From Octopus vulgaris (Eukaryota): 64,000 nt of DNA. The position numbers and the translations under genes were made by a program. The stretch is taken from the NCBI GenBank assembly GCA_951406725.2, contig OX597829.1:5642001-5706000 (forward strand), given 5' to 3'. Below the pieces are notes generated by a model, which was not told the origin of the DNA, made no database searches, and was given only the letters and a program-made list of their open reading frames with translations. Numbering within the stretch: position 1 is the stretch's first letter; each line of letters opens with the position of its first letter. Shown here in pieces: positions 55,502 through 59,814 of the stretch.

Positions 55502-56296
<795 letters not shown>

Positions 56297-56353
56297 GAAA
56301 TATTAAAATAACTAAGTCTCTCTAAAAGAGAACAGCGGCAGCGTTACTGGAAA

Positions 56354-56711
56354 ATAATAGTTATCGCCATACTAATATGGCATTCTTATAAAAATAAGAA
56401 AAAGCTGTCCGCTTATTAGCTCCATGAGGCCATCGCCTTAAGTTAGCTATTTGATACACAAACTGTATCCATATAACCTTCGAACAAGGGAGGTCAGTCG
56501 CTGCATTGAAAAGGGGCAATACCCCGAAACGCGTCTGTAGCTGCCGGTCAAGTAGTGTGGAGCGACTGACCTCCCTTGTTCGAAGGTTATATGGATACAG
56601 TTTGTGTATCAAATAGCTAACTTAAGGCGATGGCCTCATGGAGCTAATAAGCGGACAGCTTTTTTTCTTATTTTTATAAGAATACCATATTAGTATGGCG
56701 ATAACTATTAT
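56354..56711. repeat. Fold-back inverted repeat, ~149-bp near-perfect arms, 58-nt loop
   Basis: 56354-56502 pairs with 56561-56711. Confidence 0.95.
56500..56541 (+). ncRNA. Minimal type-I hammerhead fold with U3:A8 core
   Basis: GCTGCA-TTGAAAA-GGGG CAATA CCCC-GAA-ACGCGT-C-TGTAGC. Confidence 0.7.
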
Positions 56712-56790
56712 ATATATATACATATATATATATATACATATATATACATACACACATCATTCATACATGCATGCATACATTCATACATAA

Positions 56791-57029: not shown

Positions 57030-57450
57030 TAATAAATGATCATGCACAGAAAAATCAAAATGCTCATTGATGAAGCTCTGGATGAGTACAAATCTTCTTT
57101 ATAAATGTACCGTACACAAAAGGGGAGGATTGCATGTTTACATTTGGGCAACGGCTGATTCATTCAAGAATCGCTATCGCAACCATGTTGCCAACTTCAA
57201 GGAAATCAACAAAAGATATTCAACATATTTAGCTAATTTCTGTGGCCGCTTAAGGAAGATAAAATTAAGTATAACATAACTTGGTCCATAGTAAGGTACA
57301 CAAAACCATATAGTATCATTTCCAGGAGATGCCGACTCTGCTCCGAGGAATCCCTGTCTATTTTATGGCCCAATGAGAAGATTACTAATAGAATTTCTGA
57401 AAGACTCTCAAGATGATTACATGCATATAAATGCATTTTCGCACAATGCA
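57030..57450 (+). mobile_element. Penelope-like GIY-YIG endonuclease remnant
   Basis: NLLYKCTV...VYIWATADSFKNRYRNH...STYLANF, then (other frame) WSIVRYTKPY..RRCRLCSEE. Confidence 0.75.
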
Positions 57451-57992: not shown

Positions 57993-59775
57993 CACTGGGC
58001 AACAATAACATTTGTTGCATTGATATTGACACTTGTTCTTATCTAATTTGGATTCAATGAATTCAAATCTAAAATCAGACTTTCTGTATTAATTATAAAG
58101 TTCTGCAATTCAAACTTTTCATTCTTTATGGAATTTCGACACCTTTTGCATAAATCCATGTTCTATCAAAGGAATTTATGTTCATACCATCTTAAATAAC
58201 AATCATCTAGGCAAAAAAAAAAAAAAAGAAAGAAAAGAAAAGTCTCAGCAGCGTTTAAATTAATCATAAATGAATAAAAAAGAACTAATGAAATTATAAA
58301 GCTGAAATTGTCCTTATTCTGGTAAGAAATTTCGATTGACGCTCTTGCGTGTTTATAGACTTTGCCAGGATAGTCTCGTTTGATACTCCATCTGAAGACC
58401 GCCATATGTCTGTTCCAACGCCTATGATAACGCTTTCCATCGTCACGGGATGCATTTTCCCTGATCATCATTAAAAGCTCGAAAATACTCGAGGAAATGG
58501 TAGCGAGACTCTTCAGCAAATGAATTTTGACATTCATGTTGCATCCAAGATTTCAAAAAACCAACAGCGTTTTGACAACCAAAATTTCGTAGTTATCTGC
58601 AATTTCCTTAACAAAAAAGTTTCTTATAACCATCACGATTGACAGCCACGCTGACTTCTTGTCATTCATCTTCTTGCCAAATTCCTCAAGTACAAGAGCA
58701 CAAACTTGAGGCCCATCAAAGACGTTCGCTCTGATGTTCTCGAAATAAAAAGCAGGAAACGCAGAAAGTATGCGCTGTAAACATTCACTCTCAGTACATA
58801 ATGCCTTGACAAACTGCTTCATCAAGCCAAACTTAATAAGTAGTGGGATGATGGGAGAAAATGGTTTTCTTTTGGTTGACGATCGGGTCATTTACTATGT
58901 TTGGCATGCATGCAGAGTTTCACAGATGGACCGTTTTTTCTGGGTCCAATGTTTGTCTCGAATACAATTTCCATCATGCAGATGTAGCATAGAAGCATAA
59001 GGAAACCTTTCTGTTGCTCGAGGAGGAAGTTGACCATCTTTAGGTTCACACAAACCATCCATTTGTACTCGTGACCAACTGGGACTGTGCCATAAACATT
59101 ATCCTAATGCAAAGAGATTTTTGCAGAGCTTTCAAGACGATTGATTTTATTTAGTCTAGAGGCTAATAGCTCTGTTAATTTCTTGGAGAGTACCAAATCA
59201 TGTGCTAAGTCCATCAGTACCGCCCGACTAAAACGTTGAGAGGGATAGTGACTGTTTGGCATTAGATGAGAAACCTTCAGAATCTGACACCATTTCTTCA
59301 AACTCCTGATGAGATTTACAGTGTCCATCTTCAGAGAAGGCATAACAATTAAACACTGGAACTGAGATTTCCTCAGAATGAGAAAAAAGGTGAATTGAAG
59401 ATGGAAATACGCGGAGATCCTATGCAAGTAAAAACTTCTTACCAAAATTTTAGTGGTAACCAAGACAAACTAACAGTCAATTATGTAGTAGTTTGAGTGT
59501 CGCCAAACCATAGGAACTCGAAAAAGTAGGCCTTTTAGTTTTCTTATGGTCCAACCACGAAGGCTTTCCATCCAATTATGACAAATCATATGTGGAGACC
59601 ATTTCTTGTCTTGGTCCTCAAGGTGAACGTCAAAGCAGGCGTCGTCATAGACACGTGTCACGAAGTTTGTCATTTTACGTCTTTGACGAACAAATGTGTA
59701 GCTTCCACATTTGTAACAAAATGCATCGGGATCATTTATACATTTACGTATTTGATCTGAAACAAAACGAAGAAG
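57993..59775 (-). mobile_element. Decayed Chapaev3-like (CMC) DNA transposon
   Basis: CINDPDAFCYKCG, DQDKKWSPHMIC, VPMVWR, PLLIKFGLMKQFVKAL, FDGPQV, MNVKIHLL; terminus CACTG preceded by TTA. Superfamily name from memory. Confidence 0.7.

Positions 59776-59814
<39 letters not shown>

Follow-up and report, generated by a model that had tools for sequence, protein, structure and literature searches.

The near-perfect hairpin at 56354–56711 of the window, the 64,000-nt stretch of Octopus vulgaris DNA that was analysed, lies within a single insertion of a young tandem repeat that carries a hammerhead in units of ~361 nt and by its sequence is of the non-LTR retrozyme type. Several hundred insertions of this non-coding repeat occur in the genome, and the hairpin is quite probably the twin-primed form of a PLE-type insertion, made on an RNA that was probably circular. 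The value of the locus lies in an insertion rule, with two arms from two different fixed points, and not in the hairpin or in the U3:A8 pair of the hammerhead core. The locus itself is a by-product, and a function at the level of the locus is unlikely.

The features of the insertion are summarized in Table 1. Arms of 149 and 151 nt (56354–56502 and 56561–56711) flank a loop of 58 nt (56503–56560), and their pairing is interrupted only by a single mismatch and by a 2-nt bulge within an A/T run. The hairpin has a minimum free energy of −276 kcal/mol (z = −34.6 against 100 shuffles), which agrees with its description as near-perfect in an earlier reading made from the letters alone (the sequence-only reading). 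The limits given there, 56354 and 56711, hold for the hairpin arms; the whole insertion begins farther left and spans 56291–56711, and both of its ends adjoin (TA)n. In comparison with a natural monomer (L016:1501–1861), the locus holds partial units only, and each arm has sequence that is absent from the other. The junction of the arms is private to this locus. The insertion (418 nt) contains no ORF, and so has none of the RT and GIY-YIG ORF that an autonomous PLE carries inside the element; it behaves like the end piece of a PLE, yet it is not a PLE.

Table 1. Coordinates of the insertion in the window and of three related arrays elsewhere in the genome.
Feature	Position	Strand	Basis
(TA)n target microsatellite, left part	56241–56293		sequence
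Left arm, partial monomer in inverted orientation (274 to 60); outer end = site B	56291–56505	−	98.6% to natural monomer
Tail of 63 nt from site A (211) to site B (274), left arm only, unpaired	56291–56353	−	sequence and family comparison
Inversion junction, 4-nt microhomology CGCT	56499–56502		sequence; monomer alignment
Right arm, monomer positions 1–211; outer end = site A	56499–56711	+	98.6% to natural monomer
Type I hammerhead, U3:A8, 4-bp stem II, dimer-type stem III; predicted cut after C56535	56500–56541	+	descriptor, family comparison, folding
(TA)n target microsatellite, right part, interrupted	56708–56745		sequence
Inverted tandem arrays, units 271, 277, 333 nt	G000:C8:91.475–91.483 Mb (L187); C2:64.628–64.632 Mb (L188); C5:37.481–37.489 Mb (L189)		

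Other repeats were observed in the window. Immediately left of the hairpin, a 550-nt repeat (55691–56240) has (TA)n on both sides; all 40 scored places, out of 1,834 candidates, match it near full length at ~95%, which marks a separate family of fixed length. A decayed GIY-YIG-type endonuclease frame of an old PLE-like family lies at 57040–57420, outside the hairpin insertion; this old family is very abundant (8,082 candidates, 150 of them scored). Broken transposase-like frames rich in Cys/His occupy 58290–59780 on the minus strand, and several near-identical non-LTR retrotransposon 3′ fragments, each adjoining an (ATT)n tract, were found at 5860–9320.

The 361-nt repeat family

The hammerhead core has 786 exact copies in the 2.8-Gb assembly and 1,125 copies when positions 7 and 8 are left free; the reversed controls gave 0. 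As read from the assembly, the copies form short tandem runs with a spacing of 361–362 nt (at most 8 units among the sampled loci) and are dispersed on many contigs, non-coding and without LTR structure. The family is new, and its U3:A8 core has already been published for PLEs. In tandem copies, the hammerhead would act as a dimer and cut multimers into monomers. We sampled 90 of the ~700 loci, all on contigs C1 and C2, the sole criterion being a core match among those listed first. Sixty came from the list of exact cores, and 30 more comprised the last three places of that list and 27 loci from the relaxed search, including a subfamily of ~86% identity.

All 141 cores in the 90 loci carry U3:A8, and A8 is present in all of the 100 places listed from the relaxed search. 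The sequence CUGANGA ahead of the same stem II has 0 copies in the genome. The U3:A8 pair that had been noticed in the window is thus the state of the whole family. A canonical C3:G8 sister family was considered and rejected, as a search with any stem II gave 9 scattered matches against 4 control matches.

Stem I extends into a long distal helix in the family copies, with compensatory changes. Among 20 copies hand-chosen from 79 distinct ones to span the subfamilies, a set that holds few independent events, 98.5% of the stem cells are paired and 3 of the 20 pairs are changed on both sides, while stem II and the 3:8 pair are invariant. The second subfamily (L083–L103) has C at core position 7, the same U3:A8 pair and the same two ends; its distal stem I shows compensatory changes, and so does the helix enclosing site A. 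The monomer is highly paired (circular fold, z = −6.4).

Family sequence is present in contigs of three out of three runs guessed to be RNA, which come from three studies and whose contigs carry no strand, end or circle information; no run with family sequence is catalogued as RNA. Four runs were aligned to 56470–56711, and no contig among those listed bridges the junction of the locus, a result that is uninformative either way. Letter differences in the run contigs are inseparable from variation among copies, and we therefore make no claim of editing.

Inverted insertions and their two fixed ends

Sixty-three of the 90 sampled loci are inverted, always with the 3′ ends outward, and 27 are single-armed, so the fold-back seen in the window is shared by other copies of the family. 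The junctions are scattered: the arms overlap by 1–6 nt at 40 of the 63 inverted loci and by more at 3, whereas 6 junctions are blunt and 14 contain extra letters. (TA)n adjoins 125 of the 141 callable family ends. In-register pairing reaches at least 149 bp in 39 inverted loci. In 31 of the 63, a figure that sampling by core match inflates, one arm contains a complete hammerhead for which the other arm offers no partner. Given the frequency of the fold-back, the scattered junctions and the unpaired hammerheads, the layout in the window is ordinary for the family. As far as the genome sequence tells, the hairpin is the main insertion form of the family and not a purpose-built ribozyme hairpin. 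A MITE or foldback DNA element was rejected as an explanation, since the centres differ from locus to locus, the ends are unequal and single-armed loci occur.

The outer ends fall at monomer position ~211 (site A) or ~274 (site B), which are 63 nt apart. All 53 inverted loci with both ends callable have one end of each kind (0.5^53 = ~1e-16), with the tail on one side only; A+A and B+B pairs number 0, and one end is uncallable at the other 10 loci. The A+B pair was found in 38 of 43 inverted loci of the first set and in 15 of 20 of the second, to which the ~86%-identical subfamily belongs. Each of the two ends also occurs among the single-armed loci (15 B, 10 A and 2 other; n = 27). Arm divergence is 1.0% within loci and 3.9% between them (58 loci); 20 rare alleles are common to both arms and 100 occur in one arm only, an imbalance that speaks against the twin-primed reading. 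The 5′ ends of the arms fall at the cut site in 4 of 126 cases against 1.3 per position, which is no clear enrichment and so gives no genomic sign of cleavage. The family has the anatomy of a PLE-type insertion, namely an inverted 5′-truncated copy, a one-sided tail and a microsatellite target.

A young, intact family with a 722-aa open frame occurs in the same genome (L128:6745–8910; G000:C4, ~75.254–75.256 Mb). It was reached from the decayed endonuclease-like frame by the hairpin (57040–57276), through the old family and a fragment of the RT region. The ORF has RT-like and GIY-YIG-like motifs and an upstream cysteine cluster, as read by eye. From these motifs, set beside passages of Craig et al. 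2021, we take the family to be of the Neptune type. Pfam called no RT or endonuclease on the ORF and on one fragment gave no more than a faint indication of GIY-YIG (E 0.034), so the label "PLE" rests on the motifs read by eye and on the geometry. In regards to the latter, this family inserts into (TA)n and has two fixed ends at a distance of 73 nt, with one of each end in 14 of 14 tail-out pairs, as read by eye, the remaining loci showing one end or none.

A CUGAAGA...GAAA motif just upstream of the first end of this family misfits the canonical hammerhead descriptor, and that descriptor gave no match on the 20 loci of the partner search. A PLE-like ORF match was absent from view in 87 of the 90 sampled loci (L023–L112), and two had one. 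PLE-like RT fragments lie near retrozyme insertions at L087:1843–2774 and L006:2459–3369, probably through common microsatellite targeting. The 361-nt monomer has no detectable DNA similarity to the 722-aa family, the one intact family compared, which is therefore not established as the mobilising partner. A remark in the sequence-only reading that inverted partial repeats are a by-product of PLE integration is adopted as the explanation, on the strength of the inverted loci, the (TA)n targets and the one-sided tail.

The end piece of the 722-aa family forms three inverted tandem arrays with A+B ends (Table 1). The unit junction of each array occurs at one locus only, and there in both arms (26+5, 8+6 and 4+20), which accounts for all matches in the genome (31, 14 and 24, respectively). 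A junction that is private and present in both arms is the expected trace of two polymerases on one private circle. On this sequence evidence, the three arrays are candidates for newborn retrozyme-like circles; if this is true, retrozymes arise as one-off circles of a PLE end piece.

We propose that a PLE RT/endonuclease, acting as a dimer, likely cuts both strands of a (TA)n tract. Two cDNAs, starting at site A and at site B respectively, would be primed on the same RNA, probably a single circle, and would then likely be joined head to head where a few bases match. In a stronger form of this proposal, PLE insertion would be obligately asymmetric, with a dimer on one small RNA circle, a subunit at each fixed start site and both subunits rolling round from opposite cut strands. 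This stronger form may equally well prove right or wrong; the one-of-each rule has no biochemical basis yet, because no start-site difference between strands was seen in vitro (PMC11167929). If true, obligate asymmetry explains the tail, the inversion and the partial tandems of PLEs together, and such elements continually supply the genome with long, near-perfect hairpins, hundreds of them. About 70% of the sampled insertions form hairpins, and any of these that is covered by read-through transcription would give dsRNA. The use of the family lies in working out how PLEs integrate: as a young, non-coding substrate of 361 nt, with both start sites mapped and 53/53 pairing, it would permit a direct test of one circle, one dimer and one start per strand.

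Two separate RNAs from the same source locus may instead have served as templates, each strand priming on one of them without a shared circle, and the tandems coming from multimeric transcripts or unequal crossover. The arm lengths are uncorrelated (rho −0.19, p 0.16) and not every arm is contained in its partner, both of which fit two RNAs. So do the repeated variant blocks in two of the arrays, owing to which part of the array length is attributed to later local duplication or assembly error, and local amplification is the model proposed in main-text passages of bioRxiv 10.64898/2026.07.22.740005. We nevertheless consider two RNAs unlikely, since the strict A+B pairing is left without a reason and no second place in the assembly carries any of the three private junctions and could be their source.

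A second arm could also be made if a single target-primed cDNA folded on itself and copied its own strand. The greater likeness of arms within loci agrees with such self-copying, as does an excess of arm 5′ ends at the TTCGAA palindrome (10 of 126). One arm is contained in the other at 33 of the 53 A+B loci, and the longer arm contains the shorter in all three private-junction arrays, so that self-copying is a possible route for those arrays. At the other 20 A+B loci and in the window, however, neither arm contains the other, and self-copying of one cDNA is ruled out there, and so it fails as a general route. It also does not account for the second arm ending precisely at the other of the two start sites, and we regard it as very unlikely. 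A length rule, with B following A on one template, holds in 33 of the 53 loci and was rejected as not seen.

The hammerhead within the hairpin

Stem I of the hammerhead pairs GCUGCA (56500–56505) with UGUAGC (56536–56541), and the core UUGAAAA (56506–56512) is followed by stem II (GGGG-CAAUA-CCCC), GAAA and the palindrome ACGCGU; the predicted cleavage site, C17, is 56535. The motif has the core boxes with a 3:8 pair, the GAAA, the NUH site and the stems I and II of a type I hammerhead, and it is the single match of the type I descriptor in the window with both strands scanned. The hammerhead that had been placed in the loop from the letters, with its U3:A8 pair, GGGG/CCCC stem II and palindromic stem III, was thus located, and three nucleotides of stem I (56500–56502) do fall inside the hairpin arm, as had been stated. 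Rfam gave 6 matches at E ≤ 10 on 56440–56620, none of them from hammerhead families, and scans of the window and of the loop gave only noise of the microsatellite or miRNA type, without a hammerhead.

Stem III at the locus is one pair topped by a tetraloop of palindromic sequence, and the locus carries one hammerhead only, which leaves a dimer-type stem III without a tandem partner. Loop 1 and distal stem I, present in family copies, are absent here, their 5′ strand being cut off by the junction at 56499. Fold prediction gave a stem I pairing probability of ~1 in the family context, for a copy that has a stem II variant, and of ~0 in the finished hairpin, in which forming stem I is predicted to cost ~7 kcal/mol. 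For nascent transcripts ending at 56545–56566, with the right arm still unmade, the predicted probability is 0.5–0.9. The modelling predicts that the completed hairpin outcompetes the ribozyme fold at the locus and that the ribozyme, being crippled, cuts poorly.

A hairpin can serve as a dsRNA substrate without cleavage of its loop. The suggestion of the sequence-only reading, that the hammerhead is placed to cut the loop of the transcribed hairpin and free ~150 bp of dsRNA for siRNA production or ADAR editing, can draw on the near-perfect hairpin, the intact core and stem II, a possible 6-bp stem I and the values for nascent transcripts, but it is highly improbable, because the junction is private here and variable across a family in which an unpaired hammerhead is common, distal stem I and a neighbouring hammerhead are missing, the closed hairpin disfavours stem I, a copy 98.6% identical to the family is too young to show selection, and a dsRNA substrate does not require loop cleavage. 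Under the twin-primed reading, the hammerhead would lie in the loop here because of where the junction happened to fall, and dsRNA, if any, would arise as a by-product of read-through transcription.

Comparison with known systems

Main-text passages of Cervera and de la Pena 2020 (PMC7229834) and Li, Clavereau and Pollet 2026 (bioRxiv 10.64898/2026.07.22.740005) describe metazoan non-LTR retrozymes as non-coding tandem units of 150–450 nt (~350–390 nt in mussel) with one type I hammerhead per unit, without LTR, PBS or PPT and with a short palindromic stem III, and propose that they depend on PLEs. According to the former passages, hammerheads with such a stem III act as dimers in amphibian retrozymes. 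The present family is like them in unit length, in one hammerhead per unit, in the absence of LTR, PBS and PPT, in the palindromic stem III and in its highly paired monomer. It is unlike them in its fixed U3:A8, its (TA)n targeting and its mostly inverted, two-armed insertions with two fixed ends. Circle expression is demonstrated for the published retrozymes in these passages, whereas the present family is known from genome sequence. The same main-text passages describe no inverted insertions and no such ends, and we found no published account of strict A+B pairing or of inverted retrozyme insertions in the literature outside subscription journals and supplements.

In regards to PLEs, passages of Craig et al. 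2021 (PMC8557442) report inverted 5′-truncated copies, partial tandems, a 30–40 nt tail often at one end only and a (TA)n bias, and name the tandem and inverted structures an open mechanistic problem. A purified PLE protein, modelled as a dimer, cuts and extends both strands in vitro; its two start sites lie within the RNA and delimit the tail, and hammerhead cleavage is dispensable for it (Frangieh et al. 2024, PMC11167929); this sole in vitro PLE system found two start sites and not how they are used. Endonuclease-positive PLEs and the present family are alike in the inverted truncated copy, the partial tandems, the tail at one end, the (TA)n bias and the two internal RT starts. Unlike PLEs, the present element is non-coding; its tail measures 63 nt, and that of the PLE-like family in this genome 73 nt, as against 30–40 nt. 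The pairing of ends is strict here (53/53), whereas passages of the PLE papers say "often" (PMC8557442, PMC11167929). Covariation of U3 and A8 is reported in passages of Cervera and de la Pena 2014 (PMC4209133) for the hammerheads of the Schistosoma mansoni Cercyon PLE (~1,300 matches), where close hammerhead pairs on opposite strands were also observed. The Cercyon hammerheads are minimal and heterogeneous with a long stem II, whereas in the present family a stem II of 4 bp is combined with an extended stem I that covaries, and the tandem copies are nearly identical.

In L1 twin priming, both target ends prime cDNA and the inverted arms are joined by microhomology; the arms derive from neighbouring stretches of a single linear RNA that do not overlap, and the position of the inner primer site varies. 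In the present family, unlike L1, neither start site varies and the two arms have sequence in common, which gives long hairpins.
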